A stretch of DNA of 64,000 nt from a virus, in the IMG/VR virus record IMGVR_UViG_3300042553_000685; one strand, given 5' to 3'. How positions within the stretch are numbered: position 1 is the first letter of the stretch; each line of letters starts with the position of its first letter. Below, piece by piece: positions 16,575 to 57,947 of the stretch. The notes below the pieces were generated by a model, which was given only the letters and a program-made list of their open reading frames with translations, was not told the DNA's origin and ran no database searches. The position numbers and the translations under genes were made by a program.

Positions 16575-17585
16575 ATGAACGCTACACCACACACAATAAT
16601 ATCTAGACAGGGCGTCGAACAAAATAGAAGACAGTTTAAAGAACAACCCTTCGGGGAAGATTTGGGCAACGACATAACCTTAGAAATGGTTGCTATCCCA
16701 GGGGGAACTTTCCTGATGGGTTCATCGCCAAATGAGAAATATAGTTTTGATGATGAACACCCTCAACATCAAGTAAGTGTCCCACCCTTTTTCATGGGTA
16801 AATACCCCATCACTCAGGCTCAGTGGAAAGAGGTTGCCTCTCGCACAGATTTAAAAGTTGAAAGAGACCTTGATCTCAACCCAGCCTATTTTAAAGACCG
16901 TCCCGATAGTGATCGCCGCCCCGTAGAACAAGTCAACTGGTACGATGCCGTTGAATTTTGTGCGAGATTATCGATACTGACGGGAAGGGAATACCGACTA
17001 CCGAGTGAAGCGGAATGGGAATACGCTTGTCGTGCTGGAACTACTACCCCATTCTACTTTGGGGAAACCATTACAGGGGAATTGGCTAACTATGACGCCA
17101 GCGAAACAACTCCCGTGGGACAATTTACACCCAATGCCTTCGGACTGTACGATATGCACGGCAATGTCTGGGAATGGTGTGCTGATACTTGGCATGATAA
17201 CTATGACGGTGCGCCTAGTGACGGTAGTGTTTGGCTTGATAATAATCAAGAGGAAAATATTGATGGAAAGAGCAGATTCGGCACATATTCTGTCATGCGG
17301 GGCGGTTCTTGGTGCATACATCCGTCTTACTGCCGTTCCGCTTCCCGCAGCAGCCGCGATCGCCGCGACTACTTCAACCTCTACGGTTTTCGGGTAGTCT
17401 GCGTCGACCTTGATCGCGAGGGTGCTGATTCCCCTCGATTTTGGGATAAAGCTGATCGCTTGATGGTGGTGACGGTAGGAGGTGCAGCCCTAGGTGGATC
17501 GATTGCGGGAGTTTACGGTGCGGTTATTGGTGCGATATTAGCGGCGGGCTGCGGATGGTATATTACCTTTAGGAAAGCAAAATGA
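16575..17585 (+). CDS. FGE/SUMF1 (formylglycine-generating-enzyme, C-type-lectin-fold) domain protein with C-terminal Gly-zipper TM segment (336 aa)
   Basis: GGTFLMGS, HQVSVPPFFMGKYPITQAQW, PVEQVNWYDAVEFC, YRLPSEAEWEYACRAGT, FGLYDMHGNVWEWC, RGGSW, CRSA, GFRVV; tail GGAALGGSIAGVYGAVIGAILAAGCGW. Confidence 0.9.
   Translation: MNATPHTIISRQGVEQNRRQFKEQPFGEDLGNDITLEMVAIPGGTFLMGSSPNEKYSFDDEHPQHQVSVPPFFMGKYPITQAQWKEVASRTDLKVERDLDLNPAYFKDRPDSDRRPVEQVNWYDAVEFCARLSILTGREYRLPSEAEWEYACRAGTTTPFYFGETITGELANYDASETTPVGQFTPNAFGLYDMHGNVWEWCADTWHDNYDGAPSDGSVWLDNNQEENIDGKSRFGTYSVMRGGSWCIHPSYCRSASRSSRDRRDYFNLYGFRVVCVDLDREGADSPRFWDKADRLMVVTVGGAALGGSIAGVYGAVIGAILAAGCGWYITFRKAK
17295..17402 (+). other. DGR-variable-region-like 3' segment of FGE gene 1
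   Basis: RGGSW-CIHPSY-CRSA-S-R-SSRD-RR-DYFNLY-GFRVVC: conserved scaffold codons alternate with codons that differ among the three paralogues. Confidence 0.5.
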
Positions 17586-22312: not shown

Positions 22313-22365
22313 AAACCTAACTAATATTATCCAAAATTACTCATGACTTGTGCTATAATAGTTCT

Positions 22366-22974
22366 ATGAGTAAGTTAACCATATCGGAAGCCGCTAAATT
22401 GAAAGGTGTAAGCGTATCGACGTTAAGGCGTTGGGAGTCTGAAGGTAAACTAATTCCAGAACGGACTGCTAATGGGCATCGTCGTTATACAATTTCTCAG
22501 TTGCTTGGTTTAAAAGAGAATCTCTCTTATACTGTTGGCTATTGCCGTGTTTCTAGTCATGACCAAAAGAAGGATTTAGAACGTCAAAAAGAAGTTGTCG
22601 AACTGTTTTGCGCTCAAAACGGTTGGCAAGTTGAAATTATAGACGACCTAGGTTCAGGACTTAACTACAACAAAAAAGGATTAAAGCGATTAATTCGGTT
22701 GATTGTTGATAGTAAAGTAGAGAGATTAGTCTTAACTCATAAGGATAGATTACTTAGATTTGGTAGTGAATTAATCTTTAGTCTGTGTGAGCAATTCGGG
22801 ACTGAAGTTGTCATTATTAATCGAACTGAAGACAGTACATTTGAGGAGGATTTAGCACAAGATGTCTTAGAGATTATTACGGTATTTTCCGCTAGATTGT
22901 ATGGCTCTAGAAGCCATAAAAATAGAAAAATCGTAGAGGAGTTAAGAGACGTTGCTACTAGGATTCAAGACTGA
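22366..22974 (+). CDS. tnpA: IS607-type transposase TnpA (MerR-like HTH + serine recombinase)
   Basis: LTISEAAKLKGVSVSTLRRWESEGKL (HTH) and YCRVSSHDQKKDLERQ (catalytic Ser motif); start at ATG 22366. Confidence 0.9.
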   Translation: MSKLTISEAAKLKGVSVSTLRRWESEGKLIPERTANGHRRYTISQLLGLKENLSYTVGYCRVSSHDQKKDLERQKEVVELFCAQNGWQVEIIDDLGSGLNYNKKGLKRLIRLIVDSKVERLVLTHKDRLLRFGSELIFSLCEQFGTEVVIINRTEDSTFEEDLAQDVLEIITVFSARLYGSRSHKNRKIVEELRDVATRIQD

Positions 22975-24124
22975 GTTAAAACTAAATAATCAACAACGCT
23001 CATTATTAGCCCAACACGCAGGAACCGCACGTCATGCTTGGAATTGGGGTTTGGCTTTAACCAAGCAAATTTTAGACCATAATCAAGCTAACCCTGATGA
23101 AAAAATCAAGTTTCCTACGGCTATTGACCTTCACAAATGGTTGGTAGCATTGGTAAAATCAGAGCATGATTGGTATTATCAAGTGTCTAAATGCGCCCCC
23201 CAATGGGCGTTAAGAGCTTTATCCGATGCTTGGAAAAGATGCTTCAAGAAGATAGCCAAACCACCAAATTTCAAGAAGAAAGGTAAACAGGATAGTTTCA
23301 CTTTAGATGGGAGCATTAAAGTTGCTCATCAAAAGATAAAAGTTCCTGTAATTGGTTGGTTAAAAACTTACGAGCGGCTACCCTATGGATACCAGCCAAA
23401 ATCTGTCACTATTAGTAAAAAAGCTAATAGGTGGTTTATTAGTTTTAAGATGGAAGTTGAACAGCAAACAACCAATAAAACTCATGATGTAGTTGGTTGT
23501 GATCTGGGAATTAAATCTTTAGCTACTTTATCGACAGGGGAGACGTTTGAAGGCTCTAAAAGTTATCGTAAATACGAAAAACAATTAGCCAGACTTCAAT
23601 ACTTGAACCGACATAAGGTAAAAGGTTCAAATAATTGGAACAAAGCCCAACGGCAAATAGCTAAACTTCATTTTAAAATAGCTAATATCCGTAAAGATAC
23701 GTTACATAAACTCACCACTTATTTAGCCAAGAACCACGGCCAGATAGTAATTGAGGATTTAAATGTGTCTGGGATGATGGCTAATCACAAATTAGCTAAA
23801 GCCGTTCAGGATATGGGGTTTTACGAGTTCCGAAGACAACTTGATTATAAAACTCAGTTGTATGGTTCGGAATTAATCATAGCCGATAGGTGGTTTCCTA
23901 GTAGTAAAACCTGTTTTAATTGTGGGTACAAGAAAGAGTCTCTATCTTTAACTGAAAGAGTTTTTGAGTGTGAACAATGCCATGCAGTTTGCGGTCGAGA
24001 CTTGAACGCTAGTCTAAATCTAGCTTCTTTGGCGGTGAGTTCCACCGTGTCAGCTTGTGGAGTAGATAGTGCCGACACTACTACAGTGAAGCAGGAAGTT
24101 AACGTCAAATTTGCTCATGAGTAG
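22952..24124 (+). CDS. tnpB: TnpB (OrfB_IS605, RuvC-like + zinc ribbon) RNA-guided nuclease family
   Basis: GCDLGIKSLATLS, IVIEDLNVSGM, CFNCGYKKESLSLTERVFECEQCHAVCGRDLNASLNL; TTG start overlapping tnpA end. Confidence 0.9.
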   Translation: MLLGFKTELKLNNQQRSLLAQHAGTARHAWNWGLALTKQILDHNQANPDEKIKFPTAIDLHKWLVALVKSEHDWYYQVSKCAPQWALRALSDAWKRCFKKIAKPPNFKKKGKQDSFTLDGSIKVAHQKIKVPVIGWLKTYERLPYGYQPKSVTISKKANRWFISFKMEVEQQTTNKTHDVVGCDLGIKSLATLSTGETFEGSKSYRKYEKQLARLQYLNRHKVKGSNNWNKAQRQIAKLHFKIANIRKDTLHKLTTYLAKNHGQIVIEDLNVSGMMANHKLAKAVQDMGFYEFRRQLDYKTQLYGSELIIADRWFPSSKTCFNCGYKKESLSLTERVFECEQCHAVCGRDLNASLNLASLAVSSTVSACGVDSADTTTVKQEVNVKFAHE

Positions 24125-25447: not shown

Positions 25448-25520
25448 GCAGGATTGGCCGATAGGTGGAGGCACCGTCCTCATAAGACGGCTTAGAGCGG
25501 TTCGATTCCGCTATCCTGCA
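25448..25520 (+). tRNA. tRNA-Met (anticodon CAT; could alternatively be a lysidine-type tRNA-Ile2)
   Basis: Hand-folded cloverleaf. Acceptor GCAGGAT/ATCCTGC is perfect; D arm is GCCG..AGGC; anticodon stem is CCGTC/GACGG with loop CTCATAA; T arm is AGCGG-TTCGATT-CCGCT; discriminator A; no encoded CCA. Confidence 0.85.
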
Positions 25521-32089: not shown

Positions 32090-33136
32090 ATGACTTCTAT
32101 TAATTTTTACGAAAGAACGGCGCTTATCAAGCGTATCGAAAACAATCTCAATAAAATTAACCAAAGATATTTTGACAAAAGCCACGTGATATTATCAGTG
32201 ACTGATAACGGTGATTACCTCACTGTTAAAAAACAAGGTGTTTACTTAGCAGATTATGACACTCAAAAGCTTTTTGACGCTCTAGAAAATTTTATTGAAG
32301 AAGTTCGGGAGCTTCTTAGTTTTCCTTACGACCTATGGGACTATTTAGATTATTGCAGGTACACGCCAGAAGATCAAAACTCTGACAACTTAAGCAAATT
32401 AGTTGAGGAACTAGAAACAAAAAATGAAATTCTGGAGAAAAAAAATCAAGAATTAGAACAGAGCAAAGAATACAACGAAGCATGGATTGACAACTTAAAA
32501 CAAAAGGTTCACGATTTAGAATCCTCAGTTTGGCTACTGCAACAGGAAAATAAGCGACTAAAAAATCAATCAGAGTTAGGAGTAAAAATGACAATTACAA
32601 TGGTAAAGATACCAGCAAGTCAAGAAATTAAAAGTTTTAGAATTGGCAAATATCCAGTGACTCAGGAACAGTATCAGGCGGTAATGGGAGTTAATCCTTC
32701 CCATTTTCAAGGCAATCCTCAGAATCCAGTGGAAAGTGTTAGTTATGATGATGCTCAAGCTTTTTGTGAAAAACTAAGTCAGATAACAGGGAAAAATTAT
32801 CGCTTACCCACAGTATCAGAATGGGAGTATGCCTGTCGAGCAGGTACAGTTACTGGGTATTATTTCGGAGATGATTATCATCAGTTAAGAGATTACGCTT
32901 GGTATTTTGATAATTCTCAGGGAACAACCCATCCTGTAGGATTAAAGCTACCCAATGCCTGGGGACTGTACGATATGCACGGTAACGTCTGGGAATGGTG
33001 TCAAAAGGATTTTCATCTGCGGGGCGGTTCCTGGGGCAGCCTTTCTACTTTCTGCCGTTCCGCGTTTCGCTACAGCAGCCTTCGCCGCGACGACCGCACC
33101 GTCGTTAGCGGTTTTCGGGTAGTCTGTGACAATTAG
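32090..33136 (+). CDS. coiled-coil + FGE/SUMF1-domain protein (348 aa)
   Basis: N-terminal heptad-rich region (ELETKNEILEKKNQELEQSKE); C-terminal GKYPVTQEQYQAVMG, PVESVSYDDAQAFC, YRLPTVSEWEYACRAGT, WGLYDMHGNVWEWC, RGGSW, CRSA, GFRVVC. Confidence 0.9.
   Translation: MTSINFYERTALIKRIENNLNKINQRYFDKSHVILSVTDNGDYLTVKKQGVYLADYDTQKLFDALENFIEEVRELLSFPYDLWDYLDYCRYTPEDQNSDNLSKLVEELETKNEILEKKNQELEQSKEYNEAWIDNLKQKVHDLESSVWLLQQENKRLKNQSELGVKMTITMVKIPASQEIKSFRIGKYPVTQEQYQAVMGVNPSHFQGNPQNPVESVSYDDAQAFCEKLSQITGKNYRLPTVSEWEYACRAGTVTGYYFGDDYHQLRDYAWYFDNSQGTTHPVGLKLPNAWGLYDMHGNVWEWCQKDFHLRGGSWGSLSTFCRSAFRYSSLRRDDRTVVSGFRVVCDN
33017..33128 (+). other. DGR-variable-region-like 3' segment of FGE gene 2
   Basis: RGGSW-GSLSTF-CRSA-F-R-YSSL-RR-DDRTVVS-GFRVVC; I count only about 10 adenines in ~110 nt in an otherwise A/T-rich gene. 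Confidence 0.55.
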
Positions 33137-33153
33137 TTACTAATCATTTAATT

Positions 33154-33180
33154 ATCAGTTATCAGTTATCAGTTATTAGT
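33154..33180. repeat. STRR-like heptamer tandem repeat (ATCAGTT)3+
   Basis: atcagtt x3 perfect at 33154-33174, then a degenerate unit; intergenic. Confidence 0.8.
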
Positions 33181-34839: not shown

Positions 34840-35491
34840 ATGAACATTAAACCGCAACTTAAAAGCAGTATTCGGCTATTTTTAGAAGGTTCAGAAGATG
34901 GGCTCCAGCGCCTAGTATATTTACGTCAATCGGGGGAATTGCAGGACCTTCTCAATGAACTTAAACCAGACGATATACCCGAAATTGTTGTCACAAAAGC
35001 AGAGTTCACTACAGATGCAAAAGTTAAAGTCGAGTTCACTACAGATGCAAAAGATTGAAAAAGCTGAATTAATTAAGGCAATTCGAGAAGGAACAATCGA
35101 TAAGACAACTCTACAACAAGTTGATTTAAGTGGGGCTGACCTGATTAAGGTTGACCTGATTAAGGCTGATCTGAGTGGGGCGGACCTGAGAGAAGCTAAA
35201 CTGAGTGAAGCTATCCTGAGTGAAGCTGACTTGAGTGAAGCTGACCTGATTAAGGCTATCCTGAGTGATGCTATCCTGAATGATGCTATCTTGAGTTGGG
35301 CTGATCTGAGTTGGGCTATCCTAAGTGGGGCTGACTTGAATGCAGCTATTCTGATTGAGGCTAACCTAAAAGGGGCTGACCTGAGTAAAGCTAACCTGAG
35401 AGGGGCTGACATTGAAGACGCTATCTTTATCAATGCAACGGGGATCACCCCTGAACAAGAACAGGATTTAATTCGACAAGGAGTAGATTAA
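34840..35491 (+). pseudogene. frameshifted paralogue of the pentapeptide-repeat gene at 56991..57947
   Basis: 34840..35058 encodes the shared N-domain (SIRLFLEGSEDG.Q.L..L.QSGELQ.LLNELK). 34955..35491, in another frame, encodes IEKAELIKAIREGTIDKTTLQQV plus A(D/N)LxG repeats. Relative to the paralogue there is a 30-bp tandem duplication (35002-35061) and a 2-nt deficit before the TGA at 35056. Confidence 0.65.
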
Positions 35492-40093: not shown

Positions 40094-40577
40094 GACTGTA
40101 TTGGCGCTGCCCGCCATTAGACAAGATAGAACAGCGTTACCCTTTGTCTTCCCAGAGTTATCCCTCTATACTCTCCTGAGTATAGAAGATGTCATTCCTG
40201 ACATCACTATTAACGTAGTGGCTACTAGTCCGTGGGCCCAGGGCACACACTATGGCACTATGTATTGGACTGTTCTAGTAGTGCGTTATCAGAACAGTCC
40301 CTTCTTAGTAGTGGGCCGTCGTTACGTGACAGATGGGCTTAACCCTAACGAAACGGCCCTCCGCTACGTAATAGACCAGGACCTCTATCGTACGGCTATC
40401 AACTACGCACTACAGCAGGAGACAGAGGAGGTAGTCTTTACTAATAAGGAGCGGCCCCTCGATAAAGAGAAGGCCCAGGCCTTTCATCGCATCGGGAGTG
40501 AGATACGCTTTATAGAGGCTGATGCCCTCAGCTGCACTATTGGGGACATCAATACATTACTTGATATATTATTATGA
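40086..40577 (+). CDS. hypothetical protein (163 aa, TTG start)
   Basis: ORF track; overlaps both neighbours by a few nt. Confidence 0.5.
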   Translation: MLETVLALPAIRQDRTALPFVFPELSLYTLLSIEDVIPDITINVVATSPWAQGTHYGTMYWTVLVVRYQNSPFLVVGRRYVTDGLNPNETALRYVIDQDLYRTAINYALQQETEEVVFTNKERPLDKEKAQAFHRIGSEIRFIEADALSCTIGDINTLLDILL

Positions 40578-41461
40578 AACATTTAGTTAATCCAGATTCA
40601 GTTAAACCGTTGCAAAAGTTAGAATTGTTATCATTTAACTTTGAGGTGGTGCAAGTAAATGAGAAGGGTGAGCAAATTAACAAAGAGTCAAAGCAGTCCC
40701 AATATTTCAGCCAAGATTTAGACAACGACATCACCTTAGAAATGGTTGCCATCCCAGAGGGAACTTTCCTGATGGGTTCACCACAAGACGAAAAAGATAG
40801 TTACGATGATGAACGTCCTCAACATGAGGTTAACGTCCCCACCTTTTTCATGGGCAAGTATCCCATCACCCAAACACAGTGGAGAGCGATTGCCGCAACC
40901 GCTAAAATAGACATCGACCTAGAGACAAACCCTTCTGAATTCAAAGGGGATGAGCTACCCGTAGAAAGTGTCAACTGGTATCAAGCAACGGAATTTTGTA
41001 AACGACTATCAAGAGAAACAAAACGGGAGTATCGACTACCGAGTGAGGCGGAATGGGAGTACGCTTGTCGTGCTGGAACCACCACCCCATTTTACTTTGG
41101 GGAAACCATTACGGGGGAATTGGCTAACTACAATACTAACAAAACCTACGTCGAGGAATATCGAAACGAAACAACTCCCGTGGGACAATTTCCCCCAAAC
41201 GCTTTTGGACTGTACGATATGTACGGCAATGTCTGGGAATGGTGCGCCGATACTTGGCACGATAACTATGACGGGGCGCCGACGGATGGCAGTGCTTGGA
41301 TAGAAAATGGGGATGATAATCGTTCTCCTCTGCGGGGCGGGGCTTGGTACACCTTTCCGTATCGCTGCCGTTCTGCTCACCGCAACATCGACGCCCGCCG
41401 CTACAGCCGCAGCTTCCTTTACGGTTTTCGGGTGGTGTGCAGTGCTGAAAGGACTCTGTAG
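40574..41461 (+). CDS. FGE/SUMF1-domain protein (295 aa), close paralogue of 16575..17585
   Basis: DNDITLEMVAIPEGTFLMGS, HEVNVPTFFMGKYPITQTQW, YRLPSEAEWEYACRAGTTTPFYFGETITGELANY, FGLYDMYGNVWEWCADTWHDNYDGAP, RGGAW, CRSA, GFRVVC; ATGA overlap with upstream backbone gene. Confidence 0.9.
   Translation: MKHLVNPDSVKPLQKLELLSFNFEVVQVNEKGEQINKESKQSQYFSQDLDNDITLEMVAIPEGTFLMGSPQDEKDSYDDERPQHEVNVPTFFMGKYPITQTQWRAIAATAKIDIDLETNPSEFKGDELPVESVNWYQATEFCKRLSRETKREYRLPSEAEWEYACRAGTTTPFYFGETITGELANYNTNKTYVEEYRNETTPVGQFPPNAFGLYDMYGNVWEWCADTWHDNYDGAPTDGSAWIENGDDNRSPLRGGAWYTFPYRCRSAHRNIDARRYSRSFLYGFRVVCSAERTL
41329..41440 (+). other. DGR-variable-region-like 3' segment of FGE gene 3
   Basis: RGGAW-YTFPYR-CRSA-H-R-NIDA-RR-YSRSFLY-GFRVVC; diverges from gene 1 only at the interleaved codons while flanking DNA is roughly 90% identical by eye. 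Confidence 0.5.
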
Positions 41462-50364: not shown

Positions 50365-51472
50365 GGAGTTGCATCAAGTCTGGAAACAATGGTTGGCAGC
50401 TTATCGATGGATCTACAACCAAACGATTAATTTACTTTGCCAAGGTGCCAAACCTAATATCTATGATATGCAAGCCGAGCTTCGGGATTTAGCCAAGCCC
50501 GAATGGGTTAAAACCTTACCCGGACACCAGTTACAAGAAGCCGTTGCGGATGCTTGTGACGCGCATCGACAGGCTATTGCTAACAAGGGTTCCGCTCACT
50601 TAAAGTCATGCCGAGCAACGTCGCAAGTCATCAAATTCAAGGCGGGAAATTTCAAAAAGGGGACGTGGTATCCTTTACTTACCAAAGGATTATTTTTTAC
50701 GTCCCCCCAAGAAATTCCTTCTCATTGCGATTATGGCACTCAGTTGGTTTACACTCGGCGGCAATGGTTTGCCTGCTTTCCTGTGTTAAAACCAATTGAG
50801 TTGACCAGTGAAAATCGAGTTATTGCTCTAGACCCAGGAGTAAGAACCTTTTTAACTGGTTATGACGGAGAAACTGTTTTAGAAGTTGGCGGGAAAGACA
50901 TCGGAGCAATACATCGTCTTTGCCTGCATCTCGACCAACTCTGCTCTCGGATTAGCACGTCTAAATCAAAACGTCAGCGTTACAAAATGCGTCGGGCCGC
51001 TAGTCAGCTTCGGGGTCGGATTAAAAACTTAATCAAAGACCTTCACGCTAAAACTGCGTCGTTTTTGGTTCAGCATTACAAGCTTATCTTTTTGCCCACT
51101 TTTGAGACGGGCCAAATGGTCTCAAAATCCACCCGGAAGCTCAACAAGAAGTCGGCACGGAATCTCCTAACATGGAGTCACTACCGATTCGCTCAACACT
51201 TACAGCAAACAGCAGATAGGCATGGTGTTTTAGTGATTCGTTGCAACGAGTCCTATACATCCAAAACCTGTCCCGAGTGCGGGCATATTCACGAAAAACT
51301 GGGTGGTTCCAAGGTCTTTAAGTGTCCTCATTGTGGATATCAAGCGCCACGAGATTGGCACGGCGCACGAAATATTATGTTTCGTGCTTTGCAGGCAACA
51401 GCCGTTATCTTTCGAGATGATGCCGTACTTTTTCAAGGTTTGAGTAGCGATACTCAACTTTGTTTAGGTTAA
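50339..51472 (+). CDS. tnpB: TnpB (start uncertain, proposed TTG at 50339)
   Basis: LKIRVFPSRELHQVWKQWLAAYRWIYNQ, ALDPGVRTFLTG, IFLPTFETGQM, CPECGHIHEKLGGSKVFKCPHCGYQAPRDWHGARNI; the track ORF from 49745 is an out-of-frame read-through of tnpA. Confidence 0.8.
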   Translation: MKIRVFPSRELHQVWKQWLAAYRWIYNQTINLLCQGAKPNIYDMQAELRDLAKPEWVKTLPGHQLQEAVADACDAHRQAIANKGSAHLKSCRATSQVIKFKAGNFKKGTWYPLLTKGLFFTSPQEIPSHCDYGTQLVYTRRQWFACFPVLKPIELTSENRVIALDPGVRTFLTGYDGETVLEVGGKDIGAIHRLCLHLDQLCSRISTSKSKRQRYKMRRAASQLRGRIKNLIKDLHAKTASFLVQHYKLIFLPTFETGQMVSKSTRKLNKKSARNLLTWSHYRFAQHLQQTADRHGVLVIRCNESYTSKTCPECGHIHEKLGGSKVFKCPHCGYQAPRDWHGARNIMFRALQATAVIFRDDAVLFQGLSSDTQLCLG

Positions 51473-56990: not shown

Positions 56991-57947
56991 ATGAAACTTA
57001 AAGGCAGTATTCGGTTATTTTTAGAAGGTTCAGAAGATGGATTCCAGCACCTAACAGATTTACATCAATCAGGGGAATTGCAGGCCCTCCTCAATGAACT
57101 TAAATCAGGAGTCGAGTTCACTACAGATGCAAAAGTTATTGAAAAAGTCGAATTAATTAAGGCAATTCGAGAAGGAACAATAGATAAAACAACTCTACAA
57201 CAAGTTAATTTGAGTGGGGCTGATCTGAGTGGGGCTGACCTGAGTGAGGCTGACCTGAGTGGAGCTTTCCTGAGAGAGGCTAACCTAAGTGGGGTTAACC
57301 TGAGTGGGGCTTACCTGAGTAGGGCTACTCTAAGTGGGGCTAACCTGAGTGGGGTTAACCTGAGTGGGGCTAACCTGAGTGGGGCTTACCTGAGTAAAGC
57401 TGACCTGAGTGGGGCTTACCTGAGTAAAGCTGACCTGAGGGGGGCTTTCCTAAGGGGGACTAACTTGAGAGAGGCTACTTTGAGTGAGGCTGACCTGAGT
57501 GGGGCTTGCCTGAGTGGGGCTGATCTGAGTGAGGCTTGCCTGAGTGGGGCTGATCTGAGTGAGGCTGACCTGAAGGGGGCTTTCCTAAGGGGGACTTACC
57601 TGAGAGAGGCTAACCTGAGTGGGGCTAACCTGAGTGGGGCTTGCCTGAGTGGGGCTGATCTGAGTGAGGCTTGCCTGAGTGGGGCTGATCTGAGTGAGGC
57701 TGACCTGAAGGGGGCTTTCCTAAGGGGGACTTACCTGAGAGAGGCTAACCTGAGTGGGGCTAACCTGAGTGGGGCTATTCTGAGTGGGGCTATTCTGAGA
57801 GGGGCTATCCTGAGAGAGGCTAACCTGAGAAGGGCTAACCTGAGAAGGGCTAACGTTAAAAACGCTATTTTTCCCGATGCAACGGGTATCACCCCTGAAC
57901 AAAAACAGGATTTAATTCGACGAGGGGCAATTTTTGCAGAGATTTAA
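56991..57947 (+). CDS. pentapeptide-repeat protein (318 aa)
   Basis: About 40 consecutive A(D/N)L(S/R)xA-type pentapeptides; N-domain shared with 34840 gene. Confidence 0.9.
   Translation: MKLKGSIRLFLEGSEDGFQHLTDLHQSGELQALLNELKSGVEFTTDAKVIEKVELIKAIREGTIDKTTLQQVNLSGADLSGADLSEADLSGAFLREANLSGVNLSGAYLSRATLSGANLSGVNLSGANLSGAYLSKADLSGAYLSKADLRGAFLRGTNLREATLSEADLSGACLSGADLSEACLSGADLSEADLKGAFLRGTYLREANLSGANLSGACLSGADLSEACLSGADLSEADLKGAFLRGTYLREANLSGANLSGAILSGAILRGAILREANLRRANLRRANVKNAIFPDATGITPEQKQDLIRRGAIFAEI
57501..57770 (+). repeat. perfect 135-bp tandem duplication inside the pentapeptide gene
   Basis: 57501-57635 and 57636-57770 read identically (45 codons each). Confidence 0.85.

Follow-up and report, generated by a model that had tools for sequence, protein, structure and literature searches.

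Three genes of a Microcystis phage end in what appear to be variable regions (VRs) of diversity-generating retroelements (DGRs), while the cognate template repeats (TRs), reverse transcriptases (RTs) and Avd proteins were found only in the genomes of the host cyanobacteria. The genes, termed here FGE1, FGE2 and FGE3 after their FGE-sulfatase domain (PF03781), lie within a 64,000-nucleotide stretch of the virus record IMGVR_UViG_3300042553_000685 (IMG/VR), referred to below as the window, which is part of a genome of probably 160-180 kb. Judged by their sequences, the 3' ends of all three genes are genuine DGR VRs, and those of FGE1 and of the FGE3 lineage have most likely been rewritten in trans by host DGRs. 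All of the parts are of known kinds (a VR in a C-type lectin (CLec)/FGE fold, an AAY-rich TR, an RT and Avd). In the literature searched, we did not find a description of their division between virus and host, in which a phage has the targets and its host the DGR; nor is targeting by host DGRs reported there for Ma-LMM01-type phages or for any other cyanophage. When a 24-kb query from the window was compared with known phages, it matched the Microcystis myophages of the genus Fukuivirus (Ma-LMM01, MaMV-DC, MaMV-DH01, MaMV-DL01/02 and MaMV-CH01/02) at 86-89% identity over ~50-70% of its length, a similarity by which the window is assigned to a phage of the Ma-LMM01/MaMV type. The relatives analyzed were the nearest IMG/VR contig (G001, 107 kb), seven GenBank phages and 17 Microcystis species representatives.

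The case for DGR VRs begins with the last ~105 nt of each gene. Here, the scaffold codons are near-identical among the paralogues, synonymous sites included (CGG GGC GGT TCY TGG, TGC CGT TCC GC, CGC CGC GAC and GGT TTT CGG GT), and the codons between these blocks take the form NNC/NNT with a fixed third base. Pairwise identity of the three proteins is 41-65%. The same scaffold and NNY pattern recur in the orthologues of LMM01, the MaMV isolates and G001, and those of LMM01, DL01 and G001 are conserved up to RGGSW, after which a scrambled block follows. This combination is far beyond chance. The pattern of the three genes had been recognized in a preliminary description of the window, which aligned the peptide strings of the three genes, placed the FGE1 feature at 17295-17402 and proposed that only template adenines are mutagenized within an FGE-type CLec fold. 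The quoted strings are exact, the interval runs from the Met codon preceding RGGSW to the Cys of GFRVVC, and the alternation of invariant scaffold with variable codons retaining fixed bases holds at the nucleotide level. The proposed fold agrees with our annotation as well, and its assignment from sequence is secure: PF03781 matches in all three proteins and reaches the GFRVVC motif, which lies 2, 6 or 60 codons before the stop, and Treponema TvpA (PDB 2y3c) matches FGE3 by sequence (E = 2e-21).

The adenine dependence of the pattern could be measured directly, by counting mismatches to the best host TR and comparing adenine with other positions in a one-sided Fisher test. For FGE1, mismatches occupy 19 of 30 TR adenines and 4 of 72 other positions (P = 1.4e-9); for FGE2, 19/29 and 2/76 (P = 9e-12, using the TR of the Microcystis genome G016); and for FGE3, 18/30 and 6/75 (P = 6e-8). 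The adenine-only pattern anticipated in the preliminary description is thus evident in each gene. Furthermore, the FGE2 VR is 97% TR-like at non-adenine sites, whereas elsewhere in its FGE domain no gene of the 17 host genomes exceeds 78% identity, a signature of template-driven homogenization. Two of the four non-adenine mismatches of FGE1 fall in the GTA GTC of its 3' anchor, where resident bases have been retained relative to the type-B template described below, so that the rewritten tract has its 3' junction within GGTTTTCGGGT.

In the 17 Microcystis representatives, TRs were searched for with a scaffold pattern in which four variable codons were set to AAY. Candidates were obtained from four of them (G006, G007, G015 and G016), and these TRs, read in frame, have AAC or AAT at every variable codon. 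They fall into two main scaffold types, A and B, with 6- and 7-codon length variants. On contig 2 of G016, the TR directly follows the gene of a 352-amino-acid RVT_1 protein, with bAvd (PF22296) and two FGE targets nearby, the order of the host cassette being target gene, bAvd, RT, TR and second target. Where a host VR and a TR occupy one cassette region, the VR departs from the template at 0-1 non-adenine positions, and the VRs of the two G016 targets deviate from their TR at adenines alone. TR-bearing metagenome contigs exhibit a similar association, as all ten encode an RT and nine encode Avd; they resemble the phage only in the FGE gene, save for one short transposase-region match on one contig. 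The best cellular relative of FGE3, found in a protein-guided scan of species-representative genomes, is encoded by a Microcystis metagenome-assembled genome (64% amino-acid identity; G002) in which six VR-like copies share this scaffold and the 3' end GFRVVCGAGRTL-stop. The TR pattern search found none in this genome, and its sole RT, a 618-amino-acid open frame, is taken by its length to be of the group II intron type. As a separate observation, the G016 cassette has a DDE transposase (DDE_Tnp_4/DDE_Tnp_1; L116, 11143-12033) inserted between bAvd and the RT, and its neighborhood also includes two PIN-domain open reading frames (ORFs).

On the phage side, a tblastn search of the window with the host DGR RT and Avd yielded nothing significant, and a regular expression for the scaffold recovered the three VRs and no TR from it, just as the preliminary description had seen no TR, Avd or RT there. 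RVT_1 had no match in G001 or in seven complete phage genomes (LMM01, DL01, DH01, CH01, CH02, DC and the unrelated Microcystis siphophage Mic1). BLAST searches with the VR in G001, LMM01 and DL01 returned FGE genes only, with no extra TR-like copy, and two TR-specific patterns had zero exact matches in 2.9 million IMG/VR contigs. A self-contained DGR of the BPP-1 type has its RT, TR and Avd on the replicon that carries the VR, which is not what the window and the relatives searched contain. Among all of the sequences searched, the machinery is present in host genomes only. The preliminary description had suspected a DGR located elsewhere, on the phage or in its host, with these genes as its remote targets; a cognate TR, RT and Avd are indeed encoded by host Microcystis, with none in the phages of this family that were searched.

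When orthologues of FGE1 are compared, it is evident that its VR has been replaced as a block on several recent occasions. Such orthologues, hydrophobic tail included, occur on six IMG/VR contigs (L283-L287 and L302). Four of these (L283-L286) are 100% identical to window positions 16655-17287, except for two bins of 91-98% in L285 and L286, and the other two are 85-100% identical up to ~16955 and 100% from 17015 on. The ~300 nt downstream are mostly 97-100% identical in all six contigs, with a single bin (17447-17504) at 91-98%. The VR enclosed by these flanks is only 71-81% identical. Five distinct alleles are found among the orthologues, and those of the six contigs are of the 7-codon length and type A; three of them (L283, L284 and L286) have 0 of 76 non-adenine mismatches to the G016 TR and 12-13 adenine mismatches. 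The phage alleles differ in their scaffold markers (TCC...GGC/CCT/GCG ATT against TCT...TAC/CCA/GCT TAC). Since the window allele has type-B markers and the 6-codon length, two or more host templates must have served to overwrite FGE1, while its flanks remained unchanged. Contigs of three lake metagenomes from different studies and years (runs X2, X3 and X4) have flanks that match FGE1 with no more than two differences, and they exchange 17313-17383 for 74 letters or 17317-17382 for 69, both versions being present in X2. A lake metagenome (X1) that contains 96% of the sampled words of the query may be the source sample of the window. In an RNA run (X18), contigs of the FGE1 gene end at the VR borders, although DNA is possible in such libraries and transcription is not proved by this result. 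The FGE1 block is still being rewritten, or was very recently.

Replacement of the VR block is also seen in the FGE3 lineage, albeit less cleanly than in FGE1. Among 13 orthologous contigs, the flanks are 90-100% identical, including phage-specific sequence past the stop codon, whereas the VRs are 60-78% identical and form two length classes that equal the 6- and 7-codon lengths of the host TRs. Many of these orthologues have the 5' half of the VR in common and diverge in its 3' half, the end at which DGR conversions are expected to begin. The copy in the window is identical to that of L129; with three G>A changes in its 3' element and six mismatches at non-adenine positions, it is possibly in decay. 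FGE2 behaves differently from both, as the sampled contigs offered no VR-restricted variation; they had either another FGE module or, in one contig, an identical VR. Together with the absence of a host-type 3' end, this suggests that FGE2 may be a frozen copy. Across phage contigs, its N-terminal part is conserved at 95-100%, whereas the FGE module beyond a boundary at 32575-32600 is ~75% identical, indicative of module exchange. A central stretch of FGE3 is similarly divergent from its orthologues between highly similar flanks (Table 1). These internal boundaries suggest that recombination shuffles whole domain segments in addition to VRs. Population-level variation confined to the variable codons, which the preliminary description had proposed to look for, was therefore found in FGE1 and the FGE3 lineage, but not in FGE2 or in the gp062 orthologue of six isolates discussed below.

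The sequences at the 3' border of the VRs provide further information regarding potential target recognition. In FGE1, the anchor that follows the hypervariable core is the final stretch in common with the host TRs, which makes it a candidate equivalent of the initiation of mutagenic homing (IMH) element. Past this anchor, homology to host VRs and TRs stops, the ORF runs on into the tail, and all FGE1 alleles are identical from the anchor onward. A tail of this type is absent from the host VR genes, which have their stop codon ~7 codons past GFRVVC. The sequence shared after the last variable codon amounts to 20 nt in FGE1 and 17 nt in FGE2. In the hosts, the element exists as a pair, with VRs ending in ...GGGAGGACTCTG and TRs in ...GGGATTACTCTT. 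FGE3 orthologues mostly keep the VR-type IMH exactly, up to the stop codon (GGT GCT GGG AGG ACT CTG TAG), and FGE3 of the window likewise has the VR-type form of the host element (AGG...CTG) and not the TR type (ATT...CTT).

Regarding mechanism, we consider it rather probable that host DGRs rewrite the phage VRs in trans, by retrohoming during infection. During phage replication in a DGR-positive strain, TR RNA would be copied into cDNA with adenine-specific errors by the RT and Avd of that strain, and this cDNA would then substitute for the homologous phage block between the scaffold segments CGGGGCGGTTC (5') and GGTTTTCGGGT (3'). In the process, ~17-18 AAY-type codons, presumably those of the ligand-binding face of the CLec fold, would be rewritten, and the phage scaffold would be reset to the TR sequence. 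Action in trans would account for the precise tract bounds, the perfect scaffold reset and the switch of template type, and equally for the lack of an RT and TR in the searched phage sequence and for the stasis of VRs in phages propagated on other strains. The components of the BPP-1 DGR can reportedly act in trans upon a target with the right 3' element. That the phage DNA itself is the substrate of retrohoming, rather than a partner in recombination with diversified host alleles, is what we infer.

Several observations weigh against host DGRs acting in trans. Full-length DGR RTs were found in only 5 of the 17 Microcystis representatives, and in strain NIES-843 a published survey found no RTs other than those of group II introns (PMC8934634). 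Neither FGE1 nor FGE2 has the host-type VR 3' end beyond GTAGTCTG(CG), and the three G>A changes of FGE3 are substitutions in precisely that element relative to the host sequence GGT GCT GGG AGG ACT CTG TAG. Of the features anticipated in the preliminary description, the downstream hairpin alone is not there: no hairpin or cruciform after any phage or host VR folds better than shuffled sequence (z -0.75 to +1.1). Since the bona fide VRs that the host DGRs target in cis are likewise without it, the hairpin does not discriminate in this system. The VR of the gp062 orthologue, the counterpart of FGE1, is identical base for base in six Chinese isolates (MaMV-DC, DH01, DL01/02 and CH01/02; GenBank, L121-L127), and carries 7 non-adenine changes, which speaks for a lack of turnover there. 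The FGE1 alleles are also mosaic, in that L283 and L285 have the mutated 3' codons TAC TTC CTT in common but are unlike in the central part of the VR. Canonical conversion, which proceeds from 3' to 5', does not predict such a mosaic, which instead suggests recombination between alleles or patchy repair. Lastly, exchange with alleles already diversified in the host or in a co-infecting phage would leave the same adenine pattern. Two further observations concern the same VRs. The gp062-orthologue VR holds changes beyond the reach of a DGR, namely an ATG codon and a TAC that replaces scaffold CGC. In addition, a patch shared by FGE1 of L283 and FGE2 of the window (ACT TTC ... TTT) had been considered as an ectopic conversion and was dropped, as ~0.6 chance matches are expected by a rough estimate.

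Because it leaves the same adenine pattern and is favored by the mosaic alleles, recombination is the main rival to trans action. According to this explanation, the phage VRs are swapped with DGR-diversified host paralogues, with co-infecting phages or with paralogues in the same phage, and the DGR never acts on phage DNA. Suitable partners are plentiful, as each host genome has 3-12 matches to a query spanning the FGE2 domain and VR, many of them paralogues sharing the scaffold; non-template codons are shared in patches, at the 3' end by L283 and L285 and across the 5' half by G001 and the L130 group; and the whole-module exchange of FGE2 indicates that recombination is active at these loci. 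To generate the observed alleles, however, repeated crossovers would have to fall within scaffold segments of 11-19 nt bordering the VR, even though the sequence upstream of the VR is just 75-83% identical to host genes and the sequence downstream is phage-specific. No tract spills into the flanks in any of the six FGE1 alleles or the three metagenomes, and no phage allele is identical to a sampled host VR, the sampling being thin. We regard recombination as the sole source of the alleles as unlikely, yet as a serious contender. It is much less probable that the VRs are frozen fossils, captured with an already diversified VR and unrewritten since, in which case their differences would reflect separate captures and ordinary mutation. 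The unchanging gp062 orthologue with its non-adenine changes fits such a history, as do FGE2 with neither a host-type 3' end nor sampled variation, the gp037-type copies with 6-14 non-adenine changes and Mic1 gp45, whose VR has codons outside the AAY repertoire. For FGE1, the fossil explanation is excluded by five alleles of two template types between flanks that are 100% identical upstream and near-identical downstream, and by the single sample with two alleles, while the FGE3 orthologues share phage-specific flanks and differ in VR length class. As a general explanation it is already refuted. The preliminary description had offered fossils as one option, and it remains the better fit for FGE2, for the LMM01/MaMV gp062 and gp037 orthologues and for Mic1 gp45. 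The latter is an FGE-only gene (L128, record positions 50768-51343) with a recognizable, but heavily decayed VR. Its presence in an unrelated siphophage implies that Microcystis phages captured the host module more than once.

The two remaining alternatives carry little weight. Phage-encoded DGRs are the classical case, exemplified by BPP-1, and the 64 kb of the window leave a large part of the probable genome in which an RT, Avd and TR could reside. Nonetheless, the lack of any RVT_1 match in the seven complete phage genomes or G001, the lack of TR-like copies in G001, LMM01 and DL01 and of IMG/VR matches to the two TR patterns, and the lack of a phage backbone on the ten TR-bearing metagenome contigs make a phage-borne DGR highly improbable. 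As for ordinary diversifying selection and point mutation upon a binding loop, without a retroelement, the binding-site loops of phage proteins are often hypervariable. Such a process would not be expected to preserve fixed third positions and identical synonymous scaffold sites in paralogues with as little as 41% protein identity, to restrict changes to template adenines (P down to 9e-12) or to replace blocks of 20-30 bases and alter codon number between flanks free of substitutions. This explanation is already refuted, and we assign it next to no probability.

Table 1. Positions of the three FGE genes, their variable regions and other features of the window
Feature	Position	Strand	Description
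FGE1	16575-17585	+	336 amino acids; Pfam FGE-sulfatase PF03781, E = 9e-56, residues 37-275; counterpart of Ma-LMM01 gp062, syntenic in LMM01 and MaMV
FGE1 VR	17298-17402	+	RGGSW to GFRVVC; hypervariable core 17313-17383; 6-codon allele with type-B-like scaffold markers
FGE1 VR 3' anchor	17385-17404	+	GGTTTTCGGGTAGTCTGCGT; candidate IMH equivalent
FGE1 C-terminal extension	17403-17582	+	Phage-specific; Gly/Ala-rich hydrophobic segment
FGE2	32090-33136	+	348 amino acids; PF03781, E = 1.9e-36, residues 175-345; coiled-coil-like N-terminal region, then N-terminally shortened FGE domain
FGE2 VR	33020-33127	+	7-codon allele, type A; TR homology stops at GTAGTCTG
Heptamer repeat	33152-33180		TTATCAG x4, directly 3' of the FGE2 stop codon
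FGE3	40574-41461	+	295 amino acids, FGE domain only; PF03781, E = 6.5e-59
FGE3 central stretch	40896-41049		51-66% identical to orthologues, flanks >90% identical
FGE3 VR	41333-41440	+	7-codon allele, type B
FGE3 IMH-like 3' end	41441-41461	+	AGT GCT GAA AGG ACT CTG TAG
IS607-like pair	22348-24124	+	ORF 1, MerR-HTH and serine resolvase domain, 208 amino acids; overlapping ORF 2, TnpB/OrfB_IS605 with Cas12f-like TNB domain, 390 amino acids
tRNA-Met (CAT)	25448-25520	+	Ma-LMM01 has one at the syntenic place
In-ORF repeat arrays	34955-35491 and 56991-57947	+	15-nt periodicity, up to 43 copies

Elsewhere in the window, several features unrelated to the VRs were encountered (Table 1). Related transposases are annotated in MaMV-DH01 at the region matching the IS607-like pair, and the ORFs with 15-nt periodicity are taken to encode pentapeptide-repeat proteins. 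TCAG-rich repeats akin to the heptamers that follow FGE2 are found 3' of FGE2-type genes on other phage contigs as well.

What the phage proteins do can be approached from their domain content. The first variable block of FGE1 (17313-17333) spells C-I-H-P-S-Y-C, which HMMER aligns with the catalytic LCHESYC loop of bacterial FGE. In other FGE1 alleles, the same block reads GNNPTF, ANNPNL or GDIPDL, and the likeness to the catalytic loop is probably a chance outcome of mutagenesis. As the catalytic Cys loop coincides with the hypermutated segment, enzymatic FGE activity of the phage proteins is unlikely. The orthologues of LMM01, MaMV and Mic1, as well as phrog_18508, bear a public "kinase" label, yet no protein kinase domain was found in the three window proteins, for which Pfam is significant for FGE-sulfatase only. 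The kinase annotation of these phage genes appears to be wrong and probably originates from host proteins in which a kinase is fused to an FGE domain. By analogy with TvpA and with host targets that fuse the module to signaling domains, such as GUN4 (PMC7517822), the phage proteins probably act as variable binders of ligands, or as decoys, and would derive from DGR-diversified host sensors that have lost the signaling domains. The tail of FGE1 is, by its composition, a putative membrane anchor. Whether the phage copies might serve as decoys or counter-sensors is a matter of speculation.

When compared with known systems, the phage genes combine familiar features in an unfamiliar location. Cyanobacterial DGRs with remote CLec/FGE variable proteins have been described within single genomes (Vallota-Eastman et al. 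2020, PMC7517822), and these share with the present system the FGE-sulfatase/CLec fold, a VR at the extreme 3' end, a cassette composed of an AAY-rich TR, RT and Avd, multiple remote targets with a shared scaffold, and transposases near the cassette (in G016, the insertion sequence between Avd and the RT). Unlike those DGRs, the remote targets here are on a virulent-type myophage that infects a DGR-bearing genus and not in the DGR's own genome, and the phage proteins lack the N-terminal signaling domains typical of host targets. In the text searched, that study names Microcystis only with regard to orthocaspases. Our findings are likewise comparable to Mtd of Bordetella phage BPP-1, a phage gene in which the C-terminal VR of a CLec fold is rewritten at template adenines. 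However, in BPP-1 the RT, TR and Avd adjoin the target, as opposed to their absence from the phage sequence searched here, the VRs described here have no detectable downstream hairpin, and they belong to no recognizable tail module, whereas the BPP-1 VR diversifies a receptor-binding tail fiber. Treponema denticola TvpA has the same FGE-type CLec fold with a C-terminal VR, but it is a bacterial lipoprotein diversified by the DGR of its own genome. Lastly, for the conflict systems of multicellular bacteria, DGR-hypermutated CLec domains fused to signaling or effector modules have been put forward as putative sensors of antigens (Dore et al. 2024, PMC10907252; Kaur et al. 2020, PMC7159879). The phage copies differ from such sensors in consisting of the CLec module alone with a hydrophobic tail or a coiled coil.

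Taken as a whole, we lean, if only slightly, toward a scenario in which a host chromosomal DGR retrohomes into the phage, which thereby gains a hypervariable binder without an RT, TR or Avd of its own, the proteins possibly serving as decoys, or competing for whatever the host sensors recognize. DGRs are regarded as self-contained, with the RT, template and targets residing in one genome, whether that of a phage or a cell. If host DGRs do act upon the phage, targeted hypermutation would cross the boundary between virus and host, the diversity of a phage gene would constitute a record of its recent hosts, and the repertoire of a phage would depend upon the last host strain in which it replicated. 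Many of the "orphan" VR-like genes of viral metagenomes would then need to be reinterpreted as trans targets. Bloom-forming Microcystis, together with the isolated Ma-LMM01/MaMV phages, would provide a tractable system to study the ligands of cyanobacterial FGE/CLec proteins.

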